Shown: positions 1,403-15,162 of the stretch, piece by piece
Numbering within the stretch: the stretch's first letter is position 1
How the letters are laid out: every line of letters starts with the position of its first letter
Assembly: GCA_013372845.1 (NCBI GenBank)
Contig: JAALOD010000002.1
Span: 29,428 to 90,688 of the forward strand
DNA from: Candidatus Udaeobacter sp.
GTDB taxonomy: Bacteria; Verrucomicrobiota; Verrucomicrobiia; Chthoniobacterales; UBA10450
Length of the DNA: 61,261 nt
Direction of reading: 5' to 3'
The notes under the pieces: generated by a model
Told to the model about the DNA's origin: nothing
The model's input: only the letters and a program-made list of their open reading frames with translations
The model's database searches: none
Translations under genes and position numbers: made by a program

Positions 1403-2258
1403 ATGAAAAAAATCGGAATTCTTTTTGGCCAGGAACACAGTTTCCCGCCGGCATTCGTGGAGCGGGTGAATCAGAAAACCGGCGGCAAAGACATCGTCGC
1501 GGAATTTGTCAGAATCGACAAGGTGATTCAGGGGGAGCCATGCGGCTACGACGTGGTGATCGATCGCATCTCGCAAGACGTCCCATTCTATCGGGCCTGG
1601 CTGAAGAACGCCGCGCTCACGGGCACGGCAGTCGTGAATAATCCGTTCTGGTGGAGCGCGACGAAAATTCTTCAACAACGCGCTGGCGACCAAGATCGGC
1701 GTCGCGTTCCGCGAACGTGTTGCTTCCGTCAAACCAACCGCCGACGGACACGAACGACAAATCATTTCGCAATCTCGGATACCCGCTCGATTGGGAAGGA
1801 TTTTCAGTTACGTCGGTTGCCGGCATTTTTAAACCGTTCGCAGGCGGCGGTTGGAAGAATGTCTATCGCTTGCATAACCCGGAGGAATTTTATCGCGCCT
1901 ACGGCGAGACTGGCCAACTGGTGATGATGTTGCAGGAAGAAGTGAAATTCGACATGACTTCCGCTGCTATTCAATCGATCAACGGCATGTTCGGATTATG
2001 CCATACGAGCCGCGGCATCCTTATCATTGCGGTATCAAACCGAATGGCAGGCGCCGAAGAAATCCTCCAAAGAGTCGAGCAGGATGTGCTGACGCTGAAC
2101 CAGTTTCTGGTTACGACTTGAACACGGTCGAGTTTGCGATTCGCGACGGCGTGCCGGTCGCGATCGATTTTGCAATCCGCGCCGGATGCGAAGCGGCCAA
2201 CGTCGGTCAGGCAAATTTCGAATGGGTGGTCGAAGCGGTTCGAAATGGCAATCCGTAA
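1403..2258 (+). pseudogene. ATP-grasp fold ligase (RimK/glutathione-synthase-like), at least 3 frameshifts
   Basis: Three overlapping frames (1403.., 1651.., 1998..) together read MKKIGILFGQEHSFPPAFVERVN..NNPFWWSA / ..FKPFAGGGWKNVYRLHNPEEFYRAYGETGQLVMMLQEEVKFD / MPYEPRHPYH..DLNTVEFAIRDGVPVAIDF..ANFEWVVEAV. Confidence 0.6.
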
Positions 2259-2474
2259 AGCGCGCGAACAAACCCGGACGTGAAATTTGAACTGGGGCAA
2301 ATACCTGCAAGCAGCGGTGACAAGGCGAGCGCTGGGCGAGCTCGCTAAGATAACTGAAGCGAGGTGCATCGATGGCTCGCGGGAAATGCCTTCGACGAGT
2401 CCGTCGGACTGGCGGACAAGGGACCCTGCTCGATCCACGATGACAGCGAGGTTTTTGACGGAAGTCTACCCCTG

Positions 2475-3591
2475 ATGAGCGCAAAGCAGCACACACGTTT
2501 ACTCTCGGCATCGAAGAGGAATTTGCGATCATTGATCCGGAGACACGCGAGCTTCGGTCGCACATCCAGGAGATCCTCGAGGGCGGGAAAGTCACGCTCA
2601 AAGAGCAAATCAAGCCGAGATGCACCAATCGGTCGTTGAGCTCGGCACTGAAATTTGCCAGTCGGTTGTCGATGCGCGTGCCCATGTGATCGAACTGCGC
2701 AGCAGACTCGCGGAACTCGCGGTCGCAGCGGACTACAGATTGCTTCGGTCGGCACACATCCGTTTTCGCACTGGCGCGATCAACTCATTACTCAAGGCGA
2801 GCGCTATCAGGAGATAGTCAAGGACATGCAGCAGCTCGCACGCGCCAATCTCATCTTCGGATTGCACGTCCATGTCGGAATTGCAGATCGTGAAATGGCC
2901 ATTCACGTCATGAATCAAGCGCGCTATTTCTCCCGCACATTTACGCGCTCTCGGTGAACTCACCGTTCTGGGTGGCCAGGACACGGGCTTGAAAGGTTAT
3001 CGACTCAAAGTGTTCGAACGCTTTCCACGCACCGGGATTCCAGACGCGTTCGAAAGCCTTTCGGAGTACGAAGATTACTGCAAATTGCTGGTCAAAACCG
3101 GTTGCGTCGATAACGCTAAGAAAATCTGGTGGGACATCCGGCTGCACCCATTCTTCGACACACTGGAAGTGCGCGTGTGCGATGCGCAATCGCGCGTGGA
3201 CGACACGCTCGCGATCGCGGCTTTGATTCAGGCGGTGATTGCGAAGCTGCACAAGCTGCTCCGGCAAAATATCACCTTCCGTGTTTATCGCCGACGGCTT
3301 CTCGACGAAAACCGATGGCGGGCGTCGCGTTACGGCATTGACGGTAAACTGATCGATTTCGGTCGCGAAACCGAAGTCGACGCACGCAGTCTGTTAAATG
3401 AATTGCTTGAGTTCGTCTCGACCGAAGTAAACGAACTCGACAGCGAGAACGAAATGGCGCACATCGAGCGCATCATGCGCGAAGGCACCGGCGCAGATCG
3501 ACAACTCGCAGCCTACGAGCGGACGCACGATATGAAAGCGGTGGTCGATCAGATCGTTGCAGAAACGTACGAAGGCTTAAGTCTCGCATAG
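2475..3591 (+). pseudogene. Carboxylate-amine ligase, YbdK / glutamate-cysteine ligase family 2; at least 3 frameshifts in the 5' half
   Basis: Joined frames read HTFTLGIEEEFAIIDPETRELRSHIQEIL / MHQSVVELGTEICQSV / GTHPFSHWRDQLITQGERYQEIVKDMQQLARANLIFGLHVHVGI / KGYRLKVFERFPRTGIP..WWDIRLHPFFDTLEVRVCD. One break near 2617 is CCGAG where CCG GAG is expected (a lost G). The last 200 codons (2989-3591) are intact. Confidence 0.75.
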
Positions 3592-4667
3592 CGGCCGATC
3601 GCGGCGACAAGGTCCCGCACGTTTTGCTCGTTCATCCGGCCAATGGTTCCGATGCGAAAGCAGTTGGCCCGGCTCAACTTGCCGGGATAGATGACGAAGC
3701 CGCGCGCCCGGAGATGCTGATAGAAGTCTTCAAATTGGAAGTTCGGATCATCCGGATAACGAAACGCAGTGATGATGTTGCTTTGGCGTTCTTCCGGCAA
3801 ATACTCGGCGAAACCAAGCTCGCGCATCCCCGTTCGCAATGCCTCGTGATTAGCGCGGTAGCGGGCGGCGCGAGCGGAGACGCCGCCTTCTTCGCGCAGT
3901 TCTTCAAGCGCTCTGGCGAAGGCGAGCAACGCGTGGGTGGGCGGCGTGAAGCGGAATTGGCCATTGCGTTCAAGACCTTCCCATTGTGCGAACAGATCTA
4001 GGCTGACGCTTCGCGCGCAGTCTTTGGTAGTTTCGAGCACTGCGCGTCGCGCCAACACGAAGGAGAAACCGGGGACGCTTTCGAGACATTTGTTAGGGGA
4101 AGAAATTACATAATCGATTTCCAGTTTGTTCAAATCGATGGGCACACCACCGAAACTGCTCATCGCGTCGACAATGAATTCGCGACCGGCCGCTTTTACA
4201 ATGTGCGTAATCTCATCGATCGGATTCAAAATGCCGGTGGTCGTTTCGCAACGCACGATTGCCACATGCGTCGCGGCCGGTTCTTCCTCGATGAGGTGTT
4301 GTACGCTGGCAGGGTCCGGCGATTCGTTCTCCGGCCAGCGTGCCAGCCTGGTGGAAATTCCCAATCGCTCCGCGATCGCAGCCATGCGTTCGCCATAAGC
4401 GCCGTTTGCCAGCACCACGAATCTGCCTTCCGGCGGGATGACTGATGAAATGACCGACTCGAGCCCAAACGTTCCGCTTCCCTGCATGAGCACAGCTTCG
4501 TAACCCTGTTCGCGTGAGACACCGGCGATGCGGAGTAATTCCGCGCGAATGCCTGCCACCAGCTCGATGAAGTCGGTGTCGCGCGAACCAACGTCGTGTT
4601 GCATCGCGGCTTTGACGGTCGCGCTCGTGGTGAGTGGTCCCGGGGTGAACAGAAGCGGATCTTTCAT
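3549..4667 (-). CDS. phnW: 2-aminoethylphosphonate--pyruvate transaminase
   Basis: 372-aa class-V aminotransferase fold (LLFTPGPLTTSATVKAAM; PLP-lysine context ISSPNKCL). It lies directly downstream of ppd with an ATGA start/stop overlap, in the canonical pepM-ppd-phnW order. Confidence 0.85.
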   Translation of the reverse strand: MKDPLLFTPGPLTTSATVKAAMQHDVGSRDTDFIELVAGIRAELLRIAGVSREQGYEAVLMQGSGTFGLESVISSVIPPEGRFVVLANGAYGERMAAIAERLGISTRLARWPENESPDPASVQHLIEEEPAATHVAIVRCETTTGILNPIDEITHIVKAAGREFIVDAMSSFGGVPIDLNKLEIDYVISSPNKCLESVPGFSFVLARRAVLETTKDCARSVSLDLFAQWEGLERNGQFRFTPPTHALLAFARALEELREEGGVSARAARYRANHEALRTGMRELGFAEYLPEERQSNIITAFRYPDDPNFQFEDFYQHLRARGFVIYPGKLSRANCFRIGTIGRMNEQNVRDLVAAIGRYARLKPSYVSATI

Positions 4668-5818
4668 TTCGCGTTGGACCTCAAGAATTGTGAAAAGCGT
4701 TCTTTAACTTCGTGCGGCGCCACAGTGGGACGGCCGAGCTTCGCGGGCGAGCCCGATCGTATCTTCACATGCAATAAGGAAGGTCCGGGCCGGTAACGCA
4801 GCAGACGAACAGCCTCCCGAATGTCTTCCGGGCGGTCCACTGCAAAAGCCGAGCGATAATTAGCCGCAGCGGCGACGGCCGCGAAGCGGACAATCTCCGA
4901 CGCCGTTTGCTGGCCTCCCGTTGAATCGTGCGCTTCGTTATCTAGGATGATGTGAAGAAGATTCGATGGTTGATAGAAGCCAATCGTGGCGAGCACGCCG
5001 AGCTTCATTAAGGCAGCGCCATCTCCGTCGATGACGACGACTGGTTGCCTCGCGAGCGCGTGGGCCACACCGAAAGCGATCGCCGACGCGGTGCCCATTC
5101 CGCCGACGACGTAGAGGTGGTTGGCGCGATCCGAGATTGTGAAGAGTTCGCGGCCGGTCTTGCCGGTCGAAGCGATGATCGCTTCGTCGCCGGCGAGAGC
5201 ATCGAGGATGAGCTCAATTGCGGCGGTCCGGGTGAGTTGCTCCTTCTCCTTTGCTGAGAGGTTTTGTCGCAGATCGGTTTTGATCGACTCGGGCTCGACG
5301 CGACCCGACAAAGCCTGCGGCGCGACCGATCCTTTTTGCATCACCAACGCGAACGGCCGTTTCCGCTGCTCCATGCTCGCTTCAGCCTCCGCCAGGGTTT
5401 GGGCAATTTCTGTTTCGCCAGCCGGAAAAGGCAAATACGGTATTTCCAAGGTCTCGAGCAAACGCCGCATGATCCTTCCCATCTGTTCATGTTGCGGTTC
5501 GTCCCTTACTTCGGGCTGGCCGCGCCAGGTAACGATGAGCAACGTCGGCACACGAAACGGATAGTTTAGCGAGGTCAGAGGATTCACCATGTTACCGAGG
5601 CCGGAGTTCTGACACATGGTCACCGTTTTCCGGCCGGCGAGAAACGCTCCGAAAGTAATCCCGACTGCCTCGCCTTCGCTCGTGGCGCCGATGTAGTCGA
5701 CCGTTGGATCATCTATCACGTAGTTGATCAGAGACGTTAAAAAGGAGCAGGGCACTCCCGCATATTGCGAATAACCAAGGCCATGCAGGTGATCGACGAA
5801 GGAGAAAGCGCTGATCAT
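4664..5818 (-). CDS. aepY: Phosphonopyruvate decarboxylase (ThDP-dependent)
   Basis: 384 aa. N-terminus FVDHLHGLGYSQYAGVPCSFLTSLINY and ThDP motif VVVIDGDGAALMKLG...IILDNEAHDSTGG. It sits between pepM and phnW. Confidence 0.85.
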   Translation of the reverse strand: MISAFSFVDHLHGLGYSQYAGVPCSFLTSLINYVIDDPTVDYIGATSEGEAVGITFGAFLAGRKTVTMCQNSGLGNMVNPLTSLNYPFRVPTLLIVTWRGQPEVRDEPQHEQMGRIMRRLLETLEIPYLPFPAGETEIAQTLAEAEASMEQRKRPFALVMQKGSVAPQALSGRVEPESIKTDLRQNLSAKEKEQLTRTAAIELILDALAGDEAIIASTGKTGRELFTISDRANHLYVVGGMGTASAIAFGVAHALARQPVVVIDGDGAALMKLGVLATIGFYQPSNLLHIILDNEAHDSTGGQQTASEIVRFAAVAAAANYRSAFAVDRPEDIREAVRLLRYRPGPSLLHVKIRSGSPAKLGRPTVAPHEVKERFSQFLRSNAK

Positions 5819-5843
5819 GACTTAAGACGCGGCCTGATTAAAA

Positions 5844-7529
5844 TTAAAACGCCTGTGCTCGTGCGAGATCCTCGAGATCGTCCACGTCCAGCCATTGTCC
5901 GGTGATGTAAAGGGCCTGCACGCGTTGTCCCCTCCTGACGAGATAATTGAAAAGATCGTCGAAGCGCAATCGGCGAAAATCGGGACGCCTGGATACGACA
6001 TCCAACGCATCGCATATCGCAGCGGAGCCACGCGCTGTCGTTTTGATCAAGCCGATCCATTCGCCTTGGATTTTGTCCGCCGAAAGATCGGGTCCTATCT
6101 CCGTCAGGAACGCATCCTCTTCGTCATAACTGAGAGAGTAGGGCCGGGTCGCGGTGATATAGTCGATATATCCACCCCCCTCACGCTTGCGTCGCCGCTC
6201 CCACATCGCATCCACCGCGATAACGATATCGTGTTCTTCGGCGAGCAGATTGTTCAGGATATGCTGGCGAAAAAGTATATCTCCAAAGGAAATGATCGTA
6301 TCGCCATCGATCCGATCGAGGGCCTTATGTAGCGAAACCAATTCCCCCGTGCTTTCGAAATCTTCGTTCTCTATGAATTCAACGTCGGCTGCGCGCACTG
6401 TCTCGGCCGCATAGCCACGCACCACGGTGATCGCACGGACGCCGGCTGCGCGAAACTGGGCGACAAGCTTGTGCAGTAGTGGCGTCCCGCCAATGGGCAC
6501 CATAGCCTTCGGGATGCCGGCCGTGACGTCTCCCAGTTCGTTACCGCGACTGGCAGCGAGAATAATCGCGCGCATCGAAGCGCGGCCCTTGGGCAAATAA
6601 CGTTCCTCGGCAAGCAACAGTTCTTCCGCATTCTGAAGCCGGAAAACTTCTTTCACTGGGACAATTCTATCTTCGACATTTTGAACCGAACGCTCAGCAA
6701 AAATACGGCGGGTCGTTTCCTGCATCGCGGCAATTGCGCTGCGGACATTTTGATTTGCCCAGATCACGATTCTGATGCCCGCCTGCTCAAAGACTTCAAC
6801 CGGCGTACTATAATAAGTGGTGGGGGCGATCACGAGCGGACACTTGTTCGCCCACGCTTTCGCAAACGCGAGCACTTGATCTGGCGTCACCTTCTTGCTG
6901 TGAATGAGAAGCGCGTCCGCCCCCGCGAAATGATAGGCTTCGGCGCGGCGGAGCATTTCATCGATCCCCCAACCCGCAATGAATCCCTCGAGCCGTGCCA
7001 CCAGACAAAAGTCTGTGTCCGTTTGCGCATCCTTAACCGCTTTAATCTTGCCCGTGAATTCGTCGATCGTGGCGAGAGGCTGACGTTCGCCCTCGATGAA
7101 TGAATTGGTCTTGGGGAAAAGTTTGTCTTCGATGCAGACGGCTGCAACCCCGCGTTGCTCCAGTTTTTTCACGAGCCGCCGCATGTTGTTGAAGTTTCCG
7201 TAGCCAGTATCACCATCGAGCAGGATTGGAATGCGAGTGGCATCGCTCATGAATTCGACGACTTCCAGTACTTGCGTCCAGCTGGCTTCATTGTTGTCGC
7301 GTACGCCGAGGGCGGCGGAGATCGAAAGCCCGCTGGCCCAGATTCCGCGAAACCCAGCTTCCTCGACGATGCGGGCGCTCAATGCATTGTGAGCCTCCAT
7401 CAAAAACTCAAGACGTCTGGATTGCAGGAGCCGCTTAAATTGCTGCGTCTTACTGATTTCGCAAGTGGTCGAGGAAGTCATGATGCACAGCAGTCTACGA
7501 TGAGAATCATTGACTTTCTCGCTACTCAA
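5844..7529 (-). CDS. aepX: Phosphoenolpyruvate mutase fused to a C-terminal nucleotidyltransferase (LicC/PntC-like) domain
   Basis: 561-aa ORF. The N-terminal half has [30 protein letters not shown] and the PepM-diagnostic EDKx5NS motif ([12 protein letters not shown]). The C-terminal half starts [29 protein letters not shown] (NTP-transferase fold). The longest ORF starts at TTG 7529; an ATG at 7481 is an alternative start. Confidence 0.85.
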
Positions 7530-7592
7530 TACCAGTGATTAGTTTCTCCGTTTGTTTCGGTTTAAGGCGTCTGTTCAGTTCCTTTTGATTCC

Positions 7593-7913
7593 ATGCTCGC
7601 AACCGCCACGGCCAAGATAGACCAATTGATTTGTGATTCATTGAGAGGAACGGACGAAGCGAACCTGCGACGAAACTATTCCGAGCACGATGAGTTCGTA
7701 ATCGTGGAAGAATTCCTGTCCCGGGAAGTGCTCAGCCGATGGCAGATGGAAGTGGCATCGCCGCTAAAAGAAGGCGAGTCACGCTACATTGTATCGATGC
7801 AGTACGTCACGGCCGGCGAGATGAATCCCTTCATGCGCTTTATCTCGAACATGAAAGATGTAGTCGCCTACTTCGGACTTCGCGGGGTCTTCGGCAAAGG
7901 CAAGGTGCGGTGA
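7593..7913 (+). CDS. Hypothetical protein (106 aa), first gene of the divergent operon
   Basis: ATG-initiated ORF whose stop overlaps the next start (GTGA at 7910-7913). No family recognised. Confidence 0.35.
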   Translation: MLATATAKIDQLICDSLRGTDEANLRRNYSEHDEFVIVEEFLSREVLSRWQMEVASPLKEGESRYIVSMQYVTAGEMNPFMRFISNMKDVVAYFGLRGVFGKGKVR

Positions 7914-8974
7914 GAAAAGTCCCCGCCATCCTCGACTGCGTCGCTGAAACGAGCGGCGTACAGATCGCGGGATTGAGCCTGCTCGATCGCTTGATTGTGA
8001 CCGTCCATCGGGCGGGTTGCGCTCCGATCTACCTGATCGCAAAAACCACGCCGCCAGCTCCGCGTGCCCGCGCCCTTGGCGTCGACATAACACTTGCTTC
8101 AGCAATACCACTCGATGAACCCGCGCTTCTCATTAATGGAGGTGTGTTCGTCGAGACCGCGGATCTTCAGCGAGTAATCGAAGGTGGAGGACAGCTGTTT
8201 TCGGCTGATGACGCTTGTCTGCCGGTTGCGATGACGGTGGGTGATGCCATGCCAGTGAGCGCCGGAAAAGTCGCCGTACCGGTAACTGACGCGACTTCGG
8301 CACGCGAGGCCGAGCGCCGTCTTTGGGCATCGCTCACCAGCAATGCGGATGGAATCGTCGATCGGTTTCTTAATCGCCCACTCGGGCGCTACCTGTCGAA
8401 AATTCTTATCCATGCTCCATTCTCGCCCAACCAAGTTTCGATCGTATCGACACTCGTTGGCATTTTGTCGGGGTGGTTTTTCGCCGGGGGATATTTTATC
8501 TCTGGCGCGTTTCTCCTGCAGATTTCCGCCATCATCGACTGCGTGGATGGCGATCTTGCGCGCGTCCTTTATAAAGAATCGCGCTTGGGCAAATGGCTCG
8601 ACCTGGTGGGTGACCAGTTCGTGCACATCGCTGTTTTCTCCGGCATCGGCTTTGGCTTGGCTCGGAGCGATCCCGCATCGCCCGCGCTTGCGCTCGGAAT
8701 CAGCGCCGTGCTCGGCGTAATCATCTCCTTCGCCGTGATTGTGTGCTCCATGCAACGCAAGAGCGGTCGCAAATCTTCTGGTCTCAAAAAATTGATTAAT
8801 GCCACGACCAACCGCGACTTCTCGCTGCTGGTCCTGTTGCTGGCCATAGCCGGCAAGCTCGATCTCTTCCTCTGGATAGCCGGGATAGGTGTACATCTCT
8901 TCTGGATCATTGCGCTTCGCTCGCAGTGGCGAGACGCCGGAAGTGCGCCGGCTATCTCGAAGAAATCCGCGTGA
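7910..8974 (+). CDS. CDP-alcohol phosphatidyltransferase with an N-terminal soluble nucleotidyltransferase-like extension
   Basis: Perfect CDP-OH-P motif DG(x2)AR(x8)G(x3)D(x3)D in DCVDGDLARVLYKESRLGKWLDLVGD, followed by several TM helices. The N-terminal ~150 aa (ILDCVAETSGVQIAGLSLLDRLIVTVHRAG) resemble a degenerate NTP-transferase, as in IPCT/DIPPS-type fusions. Start placed at GTG 7910 (GTGA overlap); the ORF is open from 7739. Confidence 0.8.
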   Translation: MRKVPAILDCVAETSGVQIAGLSLLDRLIVTVHRAGCAPIYLIAKTTPPAPRARALGVDITLASAIPLDEPALLINGGVFVETADLQRVIEGGGQLFSADDACLPVAMTVGDAMPVSAGKVAVPVTDATSAREAERRLWASLTSNADGIVDRFLNRPLGRYLSKILIHAPFSPNQVSIVSTLVGILSGWFFAGGYFISGAFLLQISAIIDCVDGDLARVLYKESRLGKWLDLVGDQFVHIAVFSGIGFGLARSDPASPALALGISAVLGVIISFAVIVCSMQRKSGRKSSGLKKLINATTNRDFSLLVLLLAIAGKLDLFLWIAGIGVHLFWIIALRSQWRDAGSAPAISKKSA

Positions 8975-9987
8975 AATTGGCGTTAAGATTTATTATCGCT
9001 GGAGCGGGCCTGGCGCTGTTTGCCTGGTTCGTACACCGAACCGGAGTAGATACGATCCCGCGCGCCTTCGCCACGCTCGGCTGGTCGGCTCCTCTTATTC
9101 TACTGCCCTACGCACTCGTTTATCTTCTCGATACTGTTGGATGGCGTTTGTGCTTGGGCCGCACGCTTCCTAAATCGATCAGCTTCGGAGCGCTATTTCG
9201 CATTCGATGGGCTGGTGAATCGCTCAACAATGTTGTGCCTTCCGCTTATCTCGGGGGCGAAGCGGTGAAAGTCTATTTGCTCCATAAACGCGGCCTGCCG
9301 GTTGTCGACGGCGCATCAAGCGTAATCATCGGAAAGACAGCGCAAGTTCTGGCTGAAGTGATTTTTATCGCGTTTGGAGCCGTGGCCGGCTCTTCCATTC
9401 TGCCGGCCAATTCACCTGCTCGCGCCGGCATGTTCGCAATTACCGGCGCGGCAACGGCACTCATCGGGATGCTTTTCTGGCTGCAGCATCGAGGAATCTT
9501 CAGCACATTCCTGGCGTTGACTCGGCGATTGCGGTTGCGCATTCGCGCGCTTACATCGCGAGCTGAAAGTTTGCGGCAACTCGATCGGCGAATTTTAGAT
9601 TTCTATCGCAATGATCGGCGACGCTTCCTTTCCAGCGTTACGTTTTATCTGGCGGGTTGGATCGCCGATTCACTCGACATTTTGCTCGTCTCATACCTGG
9701 TTGGAATGCCGTTGGATTGGAGTCAGGCACTGGCCTTTGAGGCATTCATCGGCGTCGCCAAGGCACTCGGGATTTTTGCCCCGGCCGCCCTTGGAGTGCA
9801 GGAAAGTGGCATTATTTTTCTATTTTACCTTTTCGGTTTGCCACCGGCGCTTGCGGCTCCCTACGCCATCATCCGCCGTGCGCGTGACTTGACGTTCGCG
9901 CTAATCGGTGGCGCGCTTCTCTATGCCGAGGAACCGCTGCGCGGTTTCGCGCAGCGCGTCGCGCGAGAAGTTGAGGCGCCGGCATGA
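8971..9987 (+). CDS. Flippase-like / lysylphosphatidylglycerol-synthase-TM-region family membrane protein
   Basis: Polytopic membrane ORF with LRFIIAGAGLALFAWFV..LLPYALVYLLDTVGWRLCLG..RIRWAGESLNNVVPSAYLGGEAVKVYLL, typical of the UPF0104/LPG_synthase_TM family. GTG 8971 overlaps the upstream stop (GTGA). Confidence 0.7.
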   Translation: MKLALRFIIAGAGLALFAWFVHRTGVDTIPRAFATLGWSAPLILLPYALVYLLDTVGWRLCLGRTLPKSISFGALFRIRWAGESLNNVVPSAYLGGEAVKVYLLHKRGLPVVDGASSVIIGKTAQVLAEVIFIAFGAVAGSSILPANSPARAGMFAITGAATALIGMLFWLQHRGIFSTFLALTRRLRLRIRALTSRAESLRQLDRRILDFYRNDRRRFLSSVTFYLAGWIADSLDILLVSYLVGMPLDWSQALAFEAFIGVAKALGIFAPAALGVQESGIIFLFYLFGLPPALAAPYAIIRRARDLTFALIGGALLYAEEPLRGFAQRVAREVEAPA

Positions 9988-10724
9988 AAGCCATTATCTA
10001 CGCCGCGGGGCGCGGAACTCGTTTGCAATCGGACTCGCCGAAAATCCTTCTCGAATTCGGCGGGCGAACGCTGCTGGAGTGGCACGCGTTGCGGTTACGT
10101 GAGGCCGGCGTGCGCGACGTCGTGCTGGTGACCGGCCATCTTCGCGAGCAGATCGCAGAATTGCTTCCCGGCATTTGCGTCCGGCACGACATTGCGGTAC
10201 GCGAGATTGTGAATCCACGCTTTCGAGAGGGGAGTTTGCTCAGCCTGAAACTCTCGCTTCCAGAAATCGAAAACAGCTCCGAGCCTCTCTTGTTGATGGA
10301 TGCCGATGTGTTTTATCCAACCGGGATGCTCGACCGTCTCACCGGATCGGTACACCCCACTGCATTACTGCTGGATCGTGAATTCTCCACCAACGACGAT
10401 GATCCCATGCTCGTGCCGGTAAAAAACGGACGACCGATCGACTTTCGCAAGCAATGGAGCGGCGACGCCGAGTTCGTGGGCGAATCAATCGGTTTCTTCA
10501 AGATCGCTCCGGTTGATTTTCCCCTTCTGATTAAGGAGACACGGGCGCGAAGTCGTGGCTCCAGTTGCGCGGATTCCTACGATGATGTCTTAAGGACGTT
10601 GGTGCTTGCCGGGCGATTCGGATACGAAGACGTGACCGGACTGCCGTGGATCGAGATCGACTTTCCGGCGGATGTCATCCAAGCTCGAAAGCAACTAGTT
10701 CCAGCGATCATTCGATCTGCATGA
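9984..10724 (+). CDS. Nucleotidyltransferase (LicC / phosphocholine- or phosphonate-cytidylyltransferase-like)
   Basis: 246 aa. MKAIIYAAGRGTRL is the GxGtRL signature. There are ATGA overlaps with both neighbours. Confidence 0.8.
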   Translation: MKAIIYAAGRGTRLQSDSPKILLEFGGRTLLEWHALRLREAGVRDVVLVTGHLREQIAELLPGICVRHDIAVREIVNPRFREGSLLSLKLSLPEIENSSEPLLLMDADVFYPTGMLDRLTGSVHPTALLLDREFSTNDDDPMLVPVKNGRPIDFRKQWSGDAEFVGESIGFFKIAPVDFPLLIKETRARSRGSSCADSYDDVLRTLVLAGRFGYEDVTGLPWIEIDFPADVIQARKQLVPAIIRSA

Positions 10725-11111
10725 TGCCGCACGATCTTCATCATTTTTTCGTCGGACAACATGTCTTCGTCACTGGCGCATCCGGTTTTATCGGCGGCCA
10801 TGTGGCGTCGTTGTTAATTCAGGCCGGCGCTCATGTTCGGGCGCTCACGAGATCGACAAAAAGGGGGCTACGACAGTGCGATCGATTGGGTGGAGGGCGA
10901 TCTCCTAGCTCGGGATTCGATTGACGCAGCGATGAAGGACTGCCGATACGTTTTTCACGTCGCGGGTGACTATCGGTTTTGGGCGCGCAATCCGCGTGAG
11001 ATTTTTGCCAACAATGTGCAGGGAACTATCAATCTTTTGGAAACAGCGAAGTGTTGCGGGGTAGAAAAAATCGTTTGTACGAGCACGACCGGAATTCTTC
11101 CTGACGGCAAT
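10721..11111 (+). pseudogene. 5' third of an hpnA-like NAD-dependent epimerase/dehydratase (SDR), interrupted
   Basis: MMPHDLHHFFVGQHVFVTGASGFIGGHVASLLIQAGAHVRALTR, then one frameshift near the A5/G5 run at ~10860, then IDWVEGDLLARDSIDAAMKDCRYVFHVAGDYRFWARNPREIFANNVQGTINLLETAKCCGVEKIVCTSTTGILPDGN. SDR similarity ends at 11111 and the remainder resumes at 14437. Confidence 0.75.
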
Positions 11112-11131
11112 CATTGCCGCAGCATCGCTGA

Positions 11132-11416
11132 TTGAAGTGTGGTGGCGAGGCGGAGGCGATTGGCGAATCCATCGGCTTTTTTCGCGTGGCGGCCTCGGAC
11201 ATTCCTCTCCTGATCGAGGAGACGAAAGCTCGACTTAGTGGGGCCGGCCGGAGGGAATCTTATGACAATATTCTTCGGGCGCTCGTTAGAGCCGGCAGGT
11301 TCTTCGCGGAAGATATAACGGGTATTCCGTGGACCGAAATCGATTTTCCCGAGGATGTCGCGTATGCGAATAATATCATCCTTACGGCGCTACAGGATAG
11401 GGCGGTGAGATTATGA
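11132..11416 (+). pseudogene. C-terminal fragment (~90 aa) of a second LicC-like nucleotidyltransferase
   Basis: GEAEAIGESIGFFRVAASDIPLLIEETKARL..SYDNILRALVRAGRFFAEDITGIPWTEIDFPEDV aligns with the C-terminus of the 9984-10724 product (roughly half to 60% identical by eye). No N-terminal GxGtRL part is present. Confidence 0.75.
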
Positions 11417-11462
11417 AGCGCCCCGGTTCCAACTGCGCCCTGCACAAAGCGTCCGCAACCCA

Positions 11463-12467
11463 ATGATCAATAGGCCTATTCACGTTGTTGGCGCAGGAGG
11501 AATCGGGGTTGCTCTGGCGTGGTCGTTGTGTCGCGCTGGCTGTAGTGTGACGGTTGTGGATGCCGATCCGCAAAAAGTCGAGCACGGACGGCGCGAAGGT
11601 TTGACTGTGGTCGGGCACGGGACAGAGCAGGCATCGTTCACGCTTTTTGAAAACTGGTTGCTCCCAACCGATGCGCTGGTTCTTTTATGCACTAAGACCT
11701 ATAACAACGCCGCGGTGCTTGCCGTATTGCCTGAGACATCGCGCCTTGTGCCCGTGCAGAACGGCTTCGATCCAAAACTTGATCAGCGAAATCATGCGGC
11801 CGAAGGAATTGCATCGTTTGTCTCGGAATGTTTGCGCGATCGGCCCGTCACACGCATCACCCGCCCCGGCGACCTCCACCTGGGTGCGCGGCGTAGTGTG
11901 TCTGCCGCTGAGAAAAATGATCTTGCCGAGTTGGCTCACGCACTTTCGCCAGGCGCGCTATTTGCTGTCCAATCGGTAGACGACGTCAGGCCGTACAAAG
12001 CGACAAAGCTGATGTACAATGCCGCCATCTCGCCTCTTGCGGCGGCGGCGGGTGTCGACAATGGTGAACTGCTAACCGACCCGGTGGCTAAGCGGCTTTT
12101 CTTTGGCTTGCTGCGAGAAAACTACACTATCCTTCGTCACGCTCGCATACCTTTGTCGAAGATTGGTCCCTTTCATCCGGACACCGTCTCACTTATTCTC
12201 AGAATCCCGGGTTTGCCCTCGATCATGGGTGCTTTCTTTCGTCCGTCTTTGCGGGGCACCTATTGTTCGATGGCTCCTGATATGGTCACCGACCGAACCG
12301 AGATCGATGCATACAATGGACACCTGATTCGGCTTGCGGGCGGATTGCCTTGTCCTCTGAACCGTGCCGCTTTTGCGCTCGTCAATAAGATCGTTCGCGA
12401 CCGGCTGATACCCGGGCGTGCCCATCTGCATGAATTGGAGGGAGCCCTGAAAGGAGAACCGGTATGA
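11463..12467 (+). CDS. Ketopantoate reductase (ApbA/PanE) family oxidoreductase
   Basis: 334 aa. Rossmann motif IHVVGAGGIGVALA; C-terminal domain KATKLMYNAAISPL..CSMAPDMVTDRTEIDAYNG is typical of the family. Confidence 0.7.
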   Translation: MINRPIHVVGAGGIGVALAWSLCRAGCSVTVVDADPQKVEHGRREGLTVVGHGTEQASFTLFENWLLPTDALVLLCTKTYNNAAVLAVLPETSRLVPVQNGFDPKLDQRNHAAEGIASFVSECLRDRPVTRITRPGDLHLGARRSVSAAEKNDLAELAHALSPGALFAVQSVDDVRPYKATKLMYNAAISPLAAAAGVDNGELLTDPVAKRLFFGLLRENYTILRHARIPLSKIGPFHPDTVSLILRIPGLPSIMGAFFRPSLRGTYCSMAPDMVTDRTEIDAYNGHLIRLAGGLPCPLNRAAFALVNKIVRDRLIPGRAHLHELEGALKGEPV

Positions 12468-13486
12468 AGAACTTGGTTACCGGGGGCGCCGGCTTTCTGG
12501 GGACTCATCTCGTCACCGAACTACTCGCGAGAGGGGAACCCGTTCGCGTGTTGGAAAGACCGGGGGCGGTGGTGGATCATCTGCCGCTGGACAAGATAGA
12601 ACTGGTTTTCAGCGACATCCGGGATAGTGCCACGGTGCAGAGGGCCACCACGGGGTGCAACTCCGTTTACCACCTGGCCGCGGATCCTAATCTGTGGCGC
12701 AGGGATCGTCAGGAATTCGACGCGGTTAACCATCTGGGAACGATCAATGTGATGGAGGCAGCTGTTCAGAGCGGCGCCCAACGGATCCTCCATACGAGCA
12801 CGGAAAGTATCCTTTCATCCGCGGACTTCAAGGGCGGTTCTGTCGAGCACTTGTTGAAGGAGGAAGATATGATCGGCCCTTACTGCCTGAGCAAGCTTCG
12901 GGCGGAACAAGCGGTTCACCGCATGATCGAAAAGGGAATTCCGATCGTGATCGTTACACCAACTCTACCCGTGGGCCCGGGTGATCGGAATCAAACACCG
13001 CCGACGCGAATGGCTGTCGCATTCTGTCGCGGAGAGTTACCTGCATATCTCGACTGCCGCTTCAACTTGGTCGATGCGAGAGATGTCGCCCAGGGAATGG
13101 TTCGGGCAATGGAACGTGGACGCCCCGGAATTCGGTACCTGCTCGGCGGAGCTAATCATCGCCTTCATGAGTGGCTGCAAATTCTTGGCCGCGCGGCGGG
13201 ACGCAAGGCGCCCCGTTGGAAAGTTCCGTTCGGTCTTGCGCTCACCGTGGGGTGGTTGAGTGAGCTTTGGGCTGACTACGTGACTGGCCGTATGCCAATG
13301 GCGACGCTTACCGGCGTCCGACTGGCGCGACGCTGCATGTATTTTGACCCGGCACCATCTCTCGCGGAGCTCGGTCTTAAACCGCGTTCGATCCAGGAGT
13401 CTGCCCGCGACGCGGTGACGTGGTACAGGGAACAGGGTTGGATCCCGCCTGGCTCGCCACCTGGCGCGAGCGCCACAGAACAATAA
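12464..13486 (+). CDS. NAD-dependent epimerase/dehydratase (hpnA / dihydroflavonol-reductase-like SDR), intact paralog
   Basis: 340 aa. LVTGGAGFLGTHL; HTSTESIL; catalytic YxxxK in GPYCLSKLRAE. ATGA overlap with the upstream gene. Confidence 0.8.
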   Translation: MKNLVTGGAGFLGTHLVTELLARGEPVRVLERPGAVVDHLPLDKIELVFSDIRDSATVQRATTGCNSVYHLAADPNLWRRDRQEFDAVNHLGTINVMEAAVQSGAQRILHTSTESILSSADFKGGSVEHLLKEEDMIGPYCLSKLRAEQAVHRMIEKGIPIVIVTPTLPVGPGDRNQTPPTRMAVAFCRGELPAYLDCRFNLVDARDVAQGMVRAMERGRPGIRYLLGGANHRLHEWLQILGRAAGRKAPRWKVPFGLALTVGWLSELWADYVTGRMPMATLTGVRLARRCMYFDPAPSLAELGLKPRSIQESARDAVTWYREQGWIPPGSPPGASATEQ

Positions 13487-14081
13487 TCAGGAAAAGCGGA
13501 GCGGCGATGGCGGACGCGACTAACAATGGTAACAAAACCTTGAGCCACGCACAGAATGAAACCAGAAACAGCGAATCATCGAGATCGAAGTAGATCGGAA
13601 GCTTGAATGCGGTGCTCGGATGAGTGCCGAGAGCGTGCAGCCGAAACACGATCAGGAAAGTCACTCCCACCGACAACCCTGCGACGCCCCCCATCACCGG
13701 GCCCCACCAGCCCATCTGTTCCCTTAGTCCGACGCCGATTCCAAGGAAAACCAGGACGTTCACGATCATGTCGCACGCCAGATCATACCAATGTCCACCC
13801 GGCGTAGCGCGGTCCGCCACGCGGGCCAGTTCTCCGTCAGCGCGATCGAGCATGGCCGAAATGAAAAAGATAGCTCCCCCCCACGCTGACCAAAAATAAT
13901 TTCCAACGCCAAAAGCCACGGCGGCCCCAATGCCCGTCAGGAGACGAAGATGCGTAATGTGATTCGGCATGATCGAGGTCTTAACCAGCGGGAGAATACA
14001 CCAGCGGGCCACCGCGTGCATTGGAGTTCGCGGGGGCGGAACGGACGTGGGAACAGCGGGTTCGGAGCGTCTTTTATTCAT
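13377..14081 (-). CDS. CDP-alcohol phosphatidyltransferase (second copy)
   Basis: Perfect motif in DRADGELARVADRATPGGHWYDLACD, and multiple TM helices. The start is uncertain (internal ATGs give MHAVARW.. and MPNHITHLRL..). The 3' end overlaps the convergent SDR gene by 110 nt. Confidence 0.75.
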   Translation of the reverse strand: MNKRRSEPAVPTSVPPPRTPMHAVARWCILPLVKTSIMPNHITHLRLLTGIGAAVAFGVGNYFWSAWGGAIFFISAMLDRADGELARVADRATPGGHWYDLACDMIVNVLVFLGIGVGLREQMGWWGPVMGGVAGLSVGVTFLIVFRLHALGTHPSTAFKLPIYFDLDDSLFLVSFCAWLKVLLPLLVASAIAAPLFLIIVLWRSRQVASQAGSNPVPCTTSPRRGQTPGSNAV

Positions 14082-14193
14082 TGTTTATCCACTTGAGTAC
14101 GCCCCATCTTGGCAGTTCGCACCGTATGCCCTCAAGTTTTTGCTGCGTTTACCGGAAATACTTGTCAGACTATCAGACGATAAATGAGTTGGT

Positions 14194-15162
14194 ATGGTGC
14201 TCGATGAAGCGTTTAAACTTTCGGCTCGGGACGAAGTCTTGCAACGGCCAGACATTCGCAAAACCGGAATTCATCCCAATTTCTGGTATCCGGTCGCTCG
14301 CTCAGACAACGTCAAAACGGGAAAACCTCACGGCGTTTCATTTGCCGGCGAGCCAATCGTTCTAGTCCGGACCGAATGCTGCTCGTGTCCAGACTTCGTT
14401 GATAATAAAAATGGTCTCTTCGCTAGATGCATCTTCGGCAACTTATTTATCGAGCTAGGAACGCCGGAGCGGCTGGCAAGTGAAGAGCGTCTTGCTTCGC
14501 CATCCCAATTCAAGGGACCCTACAAACGCTCCAAGTTTCTGAGTTATCTCGAAGTGAAAAAACGGGCGGACACTGGCTGGCCCATCGTAACCACGTTGCC
14601 CACCGCGCCCATCGGCCCGCACGACCTGAGACCGACGCCAACTGGAATGATCATAGTCGCATTTCTAAAGGGACGAATCCCGTTGCTTGCCCGTACGGGA
14701 CTCAACTTCGTCGACGTACGGGATTGCGCGCTCGGTCATCTTCTGACAATGGCGCGGGCTAAGTCCGGTGAGCGTTACTTGTTAGGCGGGATCAACCTGT
14801 GGTTGTGCGATTTTCTAAAGCGTGTCGAACCCTACTCGCGTCACCGCACGCCACGTTTTTATGCGCCCCATGGGCTCAGCTTTCTCACCGCTTGCGCCAG
14901 CGAAACTGCTGGCCGGTTTTGGCCGAATTGGACTCCGTTTGTGACGCGCGAATCCGTGCGAATGTCGCGCGGTCCACATTTTTCCAGCAATGCAAAGGCG
15001 GAAAACGAGCTCGGTTATGTTCCTAGCTCATCAATAGACCACGCTATTCATGATGCCGTGGAAGATTTCGTCGCGCGAGGTCTCGCGCCAGTGGCTGCCG
15101 ACCGATCAAAATGCCATGGCACGGAAGGCACAGGCGGTGTCCGTAGCTTCATTCCCAGATAA
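14194..15162 (+). pseudogene. Chimeric ORF: N-terminal ~60 aa of a Rieske-type oxygenase fused in frame to the C-terminal two-thirds of the interrupted hpnA-like SDR
   Basis: Residues 1-62 (GIHPNFWYPVARSDNVKTGKPHGVSFAGEPIVLVRTE) match the start of Rieske oxygenases but stop before the CxH..CxxH cluster. From 14437 onward GNLFIELGTPE..FKGPYKRSKFL..PTPTGMII..LNFVDVRDCALGH..GERYLLGG.. is colinear with the C-terminal part of the 12464-13486 product. Confidence 0.75.

Follow-up and report, generated by a model that had tools for sequence, protein, structure and literature searches.

The window analysed here is a stretch of 61,261 nucleotides from a Candidatus Udaeobacter sp. assembly that is 83% complete, and all coordinates below are positions in this window. 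The names carried by close homologues point to Candidatus Udaeobacter / Chthoniobacterales (Verrucomicrobiota). The window contains a phosphonate locus organised as two divergent operons (Table 1). The minus strand carries phnW, ppd and pepM, which encode a 2-aminoethylphosphonate (AEP)-pyruvate transaminase (PhnW or AEPT), a phosphonopyruvate decarboxylase (Ppd) and a phosphoenolpyruvate (PEP) mutase (PepM or Ppm) that is fused to a nucleotidyltransferase (NTase) domain. The plus strand carries the genes of a cytidine diphosphate (CDP)-alcohol phosphotransferase, a membrane protein of the LPG_synthase_TM family and a free NTase, referred to below as the trio, preceded by the remnant of an oxygenase gene and followed by the broken start of a gene for a short-chain dehydrogenase/reductase (SDR). 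The intergenic region between the two operons presumably houses both promoters.

Table 1. Features of the phosphonate locus, with positions in the 61,261-nt window.
Feature	Position	Strand	Length	Basis
phnW/AEPT, 2-aminoethylphosphonate-pyruvate transaminase	3549-4667	-	372 aa	Profile scores
ppd, phosphonopyruvate decarboxylase	4664-5818	-	384 aa	TIGR03297, 419 bits (cut-off 312.5); TPP_enzyme_N and TPP_enzyme_C
pepM-NTase fusion	5844-7481 (ORF open to TTG 7529)	-	545 aa from ATG 7481	TIGR02320, PF13714, PF12804
PEP-mutase signature EDKx5NS	7101-7130	-		Motif match
Divergent intergenic region, between pepM and the plus-strand operon	7482-7592		111 bp	Coordinates
In-frame deletion remnant of a HalD-like 2OG/Fe(II) oxygenase	7593-7913	+	106 codons	tblastn with intact orthologs
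AF2299-type CDP-alcohol phosphotransferase	7910-8974	+	354 aa	PF01066
LPG_synthase_TM / HpnL-like flippase-like membrane protein	8971-9987	+	338 aa	PF03706, 122 bits
Free LicC/PntC-like NTase	9984-10724	+	246 aa	PF12804, 58 bits
HpnA-like SDR/epimerase, 5' part, frame-broken	10721-11135 (10721-10924 and 10833-11135)	+		TIGR03466

A preliminary description of this DNA, made from its letters alone, had read the locus as one for the synthesis, activation and transfer of AEP, and our results support that reading, since the three AEP enzymes score above equivalog cut-offs and the linkage of the two operons is kept in relatives. The minus-strand genes had been recognised there as a PepM with the EDKx5NS motif, fused to an NTase, together with ppd and phnW, and TIGR02320, TIGR03297 and NF010006 all confirm this above their cut-offs. 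The fusion protein scores 383 bits against TIGR02320 (cut-off 319.6), and its mutase domain, which spans approximately residues 1-299, matches the Mytilus PEP mutase 1M1B with an E-value of 8.5e-131; the EDKx5NS signature is taken as defined by Rice 2019 (PMC6697681). The NTase domain (PF12804) follows at about residues 300-545 (window 5847-6584). The real start of pepM is most likely ATG 7481, because its homologues are 545 amino acids long. PhnW reaches 489 bits with NF010006 (cut-off 296), 477 with TIGR02326 (cut-off 401) and 457 with TIGR03301, also above cut-off, and its ortholog in the related contig L002 has the same length of 372 amino acids. The genes phnW and ppd overlap by an ATGA that reads TCAT on the plus strand (4664-4667). 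The AEP core of a Ppm with EDKx5NS, a Ppd and an AEPT is thus present, with the mutase identified by score as well as by motif, and no other AEP-consuming gene was found in the locus.

The plus-strand operon is chained by 4-nt start/stop overlaps, and those given in the preliminary description are exact: GTGA at 7910-7913, GTGA at 8971-8974, ATGA at 9984-9987 and ATGA at 10721-10724. They connect five reading frames, namely a 106-codon open reading frame (ORF), the transferase, the LPG_synthase_TM protein, the free NTase and the broken SDR start. The family assignments of the three intact genes also hold (PF01066, PF03706 and PF12804). The preliminary description had passed over the ORF at 7593-7913, which runs into the first GTGA and is the deletion remnant of the oxygenase gene.

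The transferase is composed of an N-terminal domain (residues 1-125; window 7910-8284), NTase-like and without a P-loop, and of a six-helix catalytic domain whose motif Dx2DGx2ARx8Gx3Dx3D lies at residues 210-235 (window 8537-8614). Its homologues have 355 amino acids, which supports the GTG start. Across 25 homologues, D210, D213, G214, A217, G227, D231 and D235 never vary, and R218 hardly does. A comparison with the housekeeping enzymes PgsA and PssA, suggested earlier as a check, leaves the transferase far below the cut-offs of both models (TIGR00560, 22 vs 109 bits; TIGR00473, 16.5 vs 107 bits). Its top NCBIfam matches are the DIPPS, AIP-synthase and PIP-synthase models, again all far below cut-off, and by sequence it matches the structures of AF2299 (4o6m; E 1.6e-12) and IPCT-DIPPS (E 1.2e-11). 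An AlphaFold (AF2) model of the transferase (pLDDT 92, pTM 0.87) superposes over its full length on AF2299 in Foldseek (TM 0.70-0.76 over ~374 columns), and IPCT-DIPPS also superposes.

AF2299 of A. fulgidus (PDB 4o6m, 4o6n and 4q7c) and IPCT-DIPPS (4mnd) have the same domain order, an NTase-like domain on the cytosolic side and then a six-helix CDP-alcohol phosphotransferase, and the catalytic motif is common to all of them, but identity to the window transferase is only ~20%, and the donor predicted for the latter is CMP-AEP, whereas theirs is CDP-inositol. The likeness to IPCT/DIPPS noted in the preliminary description stands as far as the domain architecture is concerned. A true bifunctional IPCT/DIPPS was rejected, because the GxGxR...PK signature of NTases is absent from the N-domain in all of the 25 homologues examined and the NF041135 score is 77 bits against a cut-off of 580; the modelled architecture appears to be AF2299-like instead. 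We take DIPPS to be the characterised member of the clade to which the transferase belongs, with a soluble CDP-alcohol as its donor.

The two NTases of the locus differ in their nucleotide-binding loops. The free NTase carries the signature AAGRGTRLQSDSPK, which is a full GXG(T/S)RX4-8PK (GRGTR-LQSDS-PK) according to the published consensus (PMC6697681), and its best matches in the PDB are LicC (1jyk; E 5.8e-8) and Tde-PntC (6pd1; E 9.7e-5), both of them weak. The fused domain does not have this signature: with SRGNE in place of GxG(T/S)R, it has lost the first consensus Gly as well as the Thr/Ser and the Arg, and an Arg occupies the position after the first. When the consensus Arg of Tde-PntC was mutated to alanine, less than 10% of the activity was left, and the characterised PntCs are not Ppm-fused ones (PMC6697681). 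The variant loop is nevertheless conserved, as AA[ST]RGxE in Verrucomicrobiota and as AASRGKG in Burkholderia; this survey used locus-derived sequences, as a search with residues 316-561 of the fusion had returned only close relatives. Since the variant is conserved and the domain is under purifying selection (dN/dS, the ratio of non-synonymous to synonymous substitution rates, 0.22), the fused NTase would represent a functional, non-canonical subfamily. The three NTase-type domains that had been counted in the locus are therefore present but not equivalent, only the free NTase having the canonical signature. Their number and their pairing with phosphonate genes had been thought unusual, but both are typical of the published family: ~33% of PEP mutases have a PF12804 domain joined to them, and some known clusters contain a further NTase as a protein of its own (Rice 2019, PMC6697681). 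Compared with the PntC/LicC enzymes described there and in PDB 6pd1 and 1jyk, which are PF12804 proteins throughout and include Ppm-fused and separate NTases in one cluster, the free NTase of the window is only weakly similar, and the fused domain lacks the canonical loop.

The remaining product of the trio is an LPG_synthase_TM protein that scores 157 bits with the HpnL model TIGR03476 (below its cut-off of 196) and 53 bits with the "flippase-like domain" model TIGR00374 (above its cut-off of 43). It shares the PF03706 "flippase-like" membrane fold family and a length of ~330 amino acids with the flippase domain of MprF and with HpnL. It differs from MprF by the lack of the C-terminal lysyl-PG synthase domain (NF033480, 26 bits vs a cut-off of 600), and from HpnL by its score under the cut-off and by its setting, hopanoid genes being neither adjacent nor found in the assembly at its given completeness.

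At the head of the plus-strand operon, tblastn with the intact oxygenases of two relatives (250 and 276 amino acids; L001 and L002) matched only their residues 1-52 and 194-245 in the window. Still present in the remnant are the ATG, the codons for about 52 residues at either end of the protein and the GTGA shared with the transferase start, whereas ~144 codons, including those of all the HxD...H iron ligands, were removed in frame, with the junction at ~7755-7760. The core alpha-ketoglutarate (2-oxoglutarate, 2OG)/Fe(II) oxygenase of the family is consequently represented in the window by a remnant only, which gave no family match in profile searches. The intact L001 and L002 oxygenases match PF23169 (HalD) and PF13640, and they have the HxD...H ligands, as does the Burkholderia ortholog. 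A halogenase, to which the Pfam name HalD could point, was rejected, given that the intact orthologs have HxD and not HxG/A; a hydroxylase-type enzyme is more likely, to judge from these ligands. In the closest relatives of the window (L003 and L008), a different and larger in-frame deletion has left a 34-codon ORF. In the 106-codon and the 34-codon forms alike, the ATG is kept and the transferase still starts with its GTG inside an xTGA overlap. This fits retention of the remnant for translational coupling, although two in-frame events would occur by chance in about 1 in 9 cases. The mini-ORF at 7593-7913 would thus probably still deliver ribosomes to the overlapping transferase start.

Different alleles of this gene circulate in soil. 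Among contigs that match the flanks with at least 90% identity, they were seen in the soil runs X2, X5, X8 and X27 (window 7755-7761 and 7863). In runs X2 and X5, contigs read through the window-type junction, and loose ends in run X5 at 7755, 7758 and 7761 read TLKPHVHRN and FNGDKVYHAV, which is the intact allele of co-occurring strains. The L003-type junction is present in run X8, and one metatranscriptome contig hints at a third deletion variant. The hydroxylase gene is polymorphic in these populations and has been lost at least twice. In relatives with an intact gene, the predicted effect of the 2OG/Fe(II) oxygenase is a head group of 1-hydroxy-AEP; as the hydroxylase is lost in the window lineage, plain AEP is expected there, and the head group should be AEP itself.

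The organisation of the locus is conserved in Chthoniobacterales, where contigs with transferases 90%, 72% and 56% identical to that of the window have the same genes, in the same order and in two divergent operons. Outside this order, the gene set corresponds to the "Burkholderiales_CDP-OH" families, which form the largest set of ppm neighbourhoods in RefSeq (Li & Horsman 2022, PMC8942020) and which, as that paper cites them, are identical with the "Group 1 phosphonolipids" described by Yu et al. 2013. Their seven-gene core comprises a Ppm-PntC fusion, Ppd, AEPT, a 2OG/Fe(II) oxygenase, a second PntC and two phospholipid-biosynthesis genes, and the family, for which a 1-hydroxy-AEP head group is predicted, is filed under phosphonolipids (PMC8942020). 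Besides the AEP core, the window has the two PF12804 cytidylyltransferases, one of them Ppm-fused, and the pair of CDP-OH_P_transf and LPG_synthase_TM proteins. A chromosome-sized replicon of Burkholderia stagnalis carries the transferase, oxygenase, LPG_synthase_TM, NTase, PepM-NTase, Ppd and PhnW genes in one block. Identities to its proteins, taken with the window protein or with that of the relative L002, are 65% for PepM, 47% for Ppd, 47% for the oxygenase (E 6e-71), 38% for PhnW, 36% for the fused NTase, 35% for the free NTase, 30% for the LPG_synthase_TM protein (E 9e-35) and 30% for the transferase (E 7e-19).

The window and the Burkholderia clusters have the gene set in common, and the fused NTase has the LAASRG variant of the P-loop in both. 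They differ in that the window genes form two divergent operons instead of one block, in the extra 125-residue AF2299-like N-domain of the window transferase, in the SDR/epimerase added in Chthoniobacterales, in the oxygenase, cut in the window to its 106-codon remnant, and in the host, which is an uncultured soil Verrucomicrobium. Loci from Nitrospirota and Binatia (L029-L087) contain co-directional genes for Ppd, PhnW, an NTase, a longer transferase and an LPG_synthase_TM protein. In Nitrospira sp. NFB02 (L040, 3643-5355), the mutase-NTase fusion has the motif EDNVYPKRCS instead of EDKx5NS; mutase-like fusions of this type, being atypical in their motif, would therefore be missed by motif-based surveys. 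The Nitrospira cluster also has a split Ppd-like pair (165 and 217 amino acids) and a 471-amino-acid transferase with a longer N-domain.

Taken together, these data lead us to place the locus, with a probability of about 0.7, in the "Group 1 phosphonolipid / CDP-OH" family of phosphonate clusters, as a verrucomicrobial representative of the Ca. Udaeobacter type; AEP would be made, activated with cytidine triphosphate (CTP) and put on a membrane-associated acceptor. The type of cluster is already catalogued; a paper on Ca. Udaeobacter metagenome-assembled genomes (MAGs) mentions an uncharacterised "potential phosphonate synthesis cluster" (PMC7343977). The new elements are the lineage of the host, a two-domain transferase of the AF2299 type, repeated in-frame losses of the hydroxylase while intact alleles still circulate, and sister modules in genomes in which no PepM was detected.

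Going by homology above the curated cut-offs, PepM converts PEP to phosphonopyruvate, Ppd decarboxylates this to phosphonoacetaldehyde and so pulls the unfavourable equilibrium of the mutase, and PhnW transaminates the aldehyde to AEP. CTP and AEP would then give CMP-AEP, most likely by the action of the free NTase, while the fused SRG-variant domain may catalyse the same or a related reaction, or may use a different substrate. The transferase is predicted to take the aminoethylphosphonyl group of CMP-AEP and attach it to a hydroxyl on a membrane-associated acceptor, with release of CMP, and the LPG_synthase_TM protein may bring the product to the outer leaflet. Diacylglycerol is a plausible acceptor and the simplest candidate; a glycolipid or another lipid alcohol are candidates as well. 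A diacylglycerol acceptor would parallel the CDP-ethanolamine and CDP-choline routes.

The HpnL-like and HpnA-like matches prompted us to consider a hopanoid acceptor, which found no support. In the 83%-complete assembly, the squalene-hopene cyclase gene (shc) was not found and no match to hpnH reached the cut-off. Nor is shc linked to the trio: it is present in 16 of 18 trio-bearing genomes and in 57-59 of 101 background genomes of the order, all eight of the listed same-family genomes have it and none of these has the trio, and in the genomes that allowed both to be located, shc and the trio are separated by 116-212 kb or are on different contigs. This evidence is mildly against a hopanoid acceptor in the window organism, within the limit set by the completeness of the assembly.

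The trio also occurs apart from pepM. When species-representative genomes were scanned, many Verrucomicrobiota turned out to have all three proteins of the trio together, the transferase including its N-domain, at 45-49% identity. A genome-wide search for PEP mutase was made in 16 Verrucomicrobiota genomes with no pepM beside the trio, 15 of which have readable upstream sequence. PepM was above cut-off in five of them; four are exactly those with an oxygenase beside the trio, and in the fifth the upstream region is cut off. PepM is thus present in 4/4 genomes with the oxygenase and in 0/11 without it (Fisher ~7e-4). The occurrence of the trio without PepM means that the module does not require phosphonate, and it looks like a generic head-group module that would activate with CTP, transfer and flip, the oxygenase-bearing subtype, to which the window belongs, being its putative phosphonate version.

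In the transferase tree, the window groups with PepM-linked relatives from Chthoniobacterales, and most PepM-less loci form a separate, well-supported clade; the switches between the two states are not countable, because the backbone of the verrucomicrobial tree is unresolved. Two Bacteroidota MAGs (L011 and L016, titled Chitinophaga pinensis and Candidatus Kapaibacterium) nest in the verrucomicrobial clade with strong support, which could reflect mis-binning or recent transfer. In a Limisphaerales MAG with no PepM found (L023, 7523-14192), the genes on either side of the trio encode GT4 and GT1/GT28-type glycosyltransferases, a cytidine-deaminase-like protein and a metallophosphoesterase, which hints that the non-phosphonate subtype may use a glycolipid or glycan as its acceptor. 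Among the other sampled species-representative genomes of the order (150 genomes, two of them of the same genus), no transferase homologue was found at E <= 1e-20, yet close relatives number in the hundreds in metagenomes; either the locus has a patchy distribution or representative genomes capture it poorly. A wider reading, which we put forward tentatively and with some doubt, is that the trio is a donor-flexible module switched between phosphate-ester and phosphonate donors in Verrucomicrobiota, that the Udaeobacter head group toggles between 1-hydroxy-AEP and AEP through at least two in-frame deletions, and that the remnant serves as a coupling leader ORF.

The six intact genes of the locus are under purifying selection. 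Their pairwise dN/dS against relatives is 0.07-0.26, and 0.09-0.35 when calculated per single domain; the values are also low against relatives without the oxygenase. Soil metagenomes from at least 11 studies contain a near-identical locus. In metatranscriptomes of soil and sediment, a few short contigs match the pepM-NTase and transferase genes with 95-98% identity and are weak evidence of transcription.

Several points weigh against the assignment to an AEP-based phosphonolipid family, and some of them suit other explanations. DIPPS, the nearest characterised relative of the transferase, acts on a soluble acceptor. If AEP were put likewise onto a soluble or glycan acceptor, such as a polyol phosphate (the case in di-myo-inositol-phosphate synthesis), a glycolipid sugar or a lipid-linked oligosaccharide, the product would be a phosphonate diester solute or a phosphonoglycan rather than a membrane lipid; the closest models and structures (DIPPS, the AIP and PIP synthases and AF2299), the position of the trio between glycosyltransferases in the PepM-less L023 and the conservation of the SDR/epimerase in the Chthoniobacterales operon are in its favour. 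We find this unlikely, considering that the flippase-like LPG_synthase_TM protein is invariably coupled to the transferase, as fits a membrane-anchored product, that neither a glycosyltransferase nor an inositol-phosphate synthase is among the annotated ORFs at 2035-12467, and that published predictions place the family under phosphonolipids (PMC8942020). The free NTase, in turn, matches LicC in the PDB slightly better than Tde-PntC, a preference for AEP not being readable from its sequence, and the 11 Verrucomicrobiota genomes that have the trio and in which no true PepM was found include one complete 10.6-Mb chromosome. Both facts would agree with a trio that is independent of the phosphonate genes, its NTase activating an ordinary phosphate ester such as phosphoethanolamine or phosphocholine for the transferase to install, presumably the situation in PepM-less relatives, and AEP being used elsewhere or exported. 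That is very improbable in view of the divergent adjacency to pepM, which is kept at 56-90% transferase identity, the single co-directional block in Burkholderia and the related block, with an atypical mutase motif, in Nitrospira; moreover, the window transferase clusters with PepM-linked relatives and apart from the main PepM-less clade, the oxygenase-bearing subtype tracks PepM perfectly, and the locus offers AEP no other consuming gene.

A further objection is that two conserved members of the operon are broken in the window, the oxygenase being reduced to a remnant and the SDR split. With the GCS2 fragment that flanks phnW at 2989-3591, they could be taken as signs of a decaying locus that makes nothing, which is to us the least probable of these explanations. 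The six other genes have full ortholog length and intact motifs, their dN/dS stays at 0.07-0.26 against two other lineages without the oxygenase, the two different oxygenase deletions are each in frame and each retain the overlap with the transferase start, and the locus is nearly unchanged in soils from many studies. Against our assignment to the phosphonolipid family also stand the RNA evidence, which consists of a few short contigs from relatives in runs of a kind that can contain DNA, and the state of the literature: no product of the cluster family had been characterised as of 2022 (PMC8942020), and a newer one was not found in the open-access literature searched, where PMC13700237 treats AEP uptake and not synthesis.

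The surroundings of the locus were compared with those of the relatives. In the SDR/epimerase gene, positions 2-35 and 45-118 of TIGR03466 are matched in different frames; the gene is intact in L001 and L002 (292-366 amino acids), where it is a member of the conserved Chthoniobacterales operon, and it is disrupted in the window. Between the SDR parts (window 10721-15162) lie a ketopantoate-reductase-like gene, a second SDR and a second, short CDP-alcohol transferase (13377-14081, minus strand). The split arrangement is also found in L003, while L001 and L002 have one intact SDR. On the other side, the fragment of a GCS2/YbdK-type ligase at 2989-3591 (profile positions 173-290 of 291) is convergent with phnW, and the two overlap at the 3' end of phnW; the fragment lies outside the conserved cluster, because the neighbours of phnW in L002 are different (DJ-1/PfpI and AraC). 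Finally, a second contig of the same assembly (C23, or L007; 10,466 bp) duplicates window 5002-14832, with 100% identity over 8807-14832 and 97.8% over 5002-8451, and all of its 78 mismatches crowd into 5009-5505, the 3' part of ppd. A second, paralogous locus was rejected on this identity pattern, and the contig looks like a redundant, co-assembled strain variant.

Candidatus Udaeobacter is described as being among the most abundant groups of soil bacteria and is largely unexplored (PMC7343977). The accepted picture of phosphonate biosynthesis is unchanged by our analysis, which concerns the commonest family of ppm neighbourhoods, one whose products were nonetheless uncharacterised as of 2022 (PMC8942020). 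The natural hydroxylase-less variant, the AF2299-like model of the transferase and the PepM-less sister modules offer testable contrasts of donor and acceptor. If it is made, the cell-bound phosphonate of Udaeobacter could be a sizeable and so far unaccounted pool of carbon-phosphorus-bonded phosphorus in soil, and it could supply the AEP that other soil bacteria scavenge.

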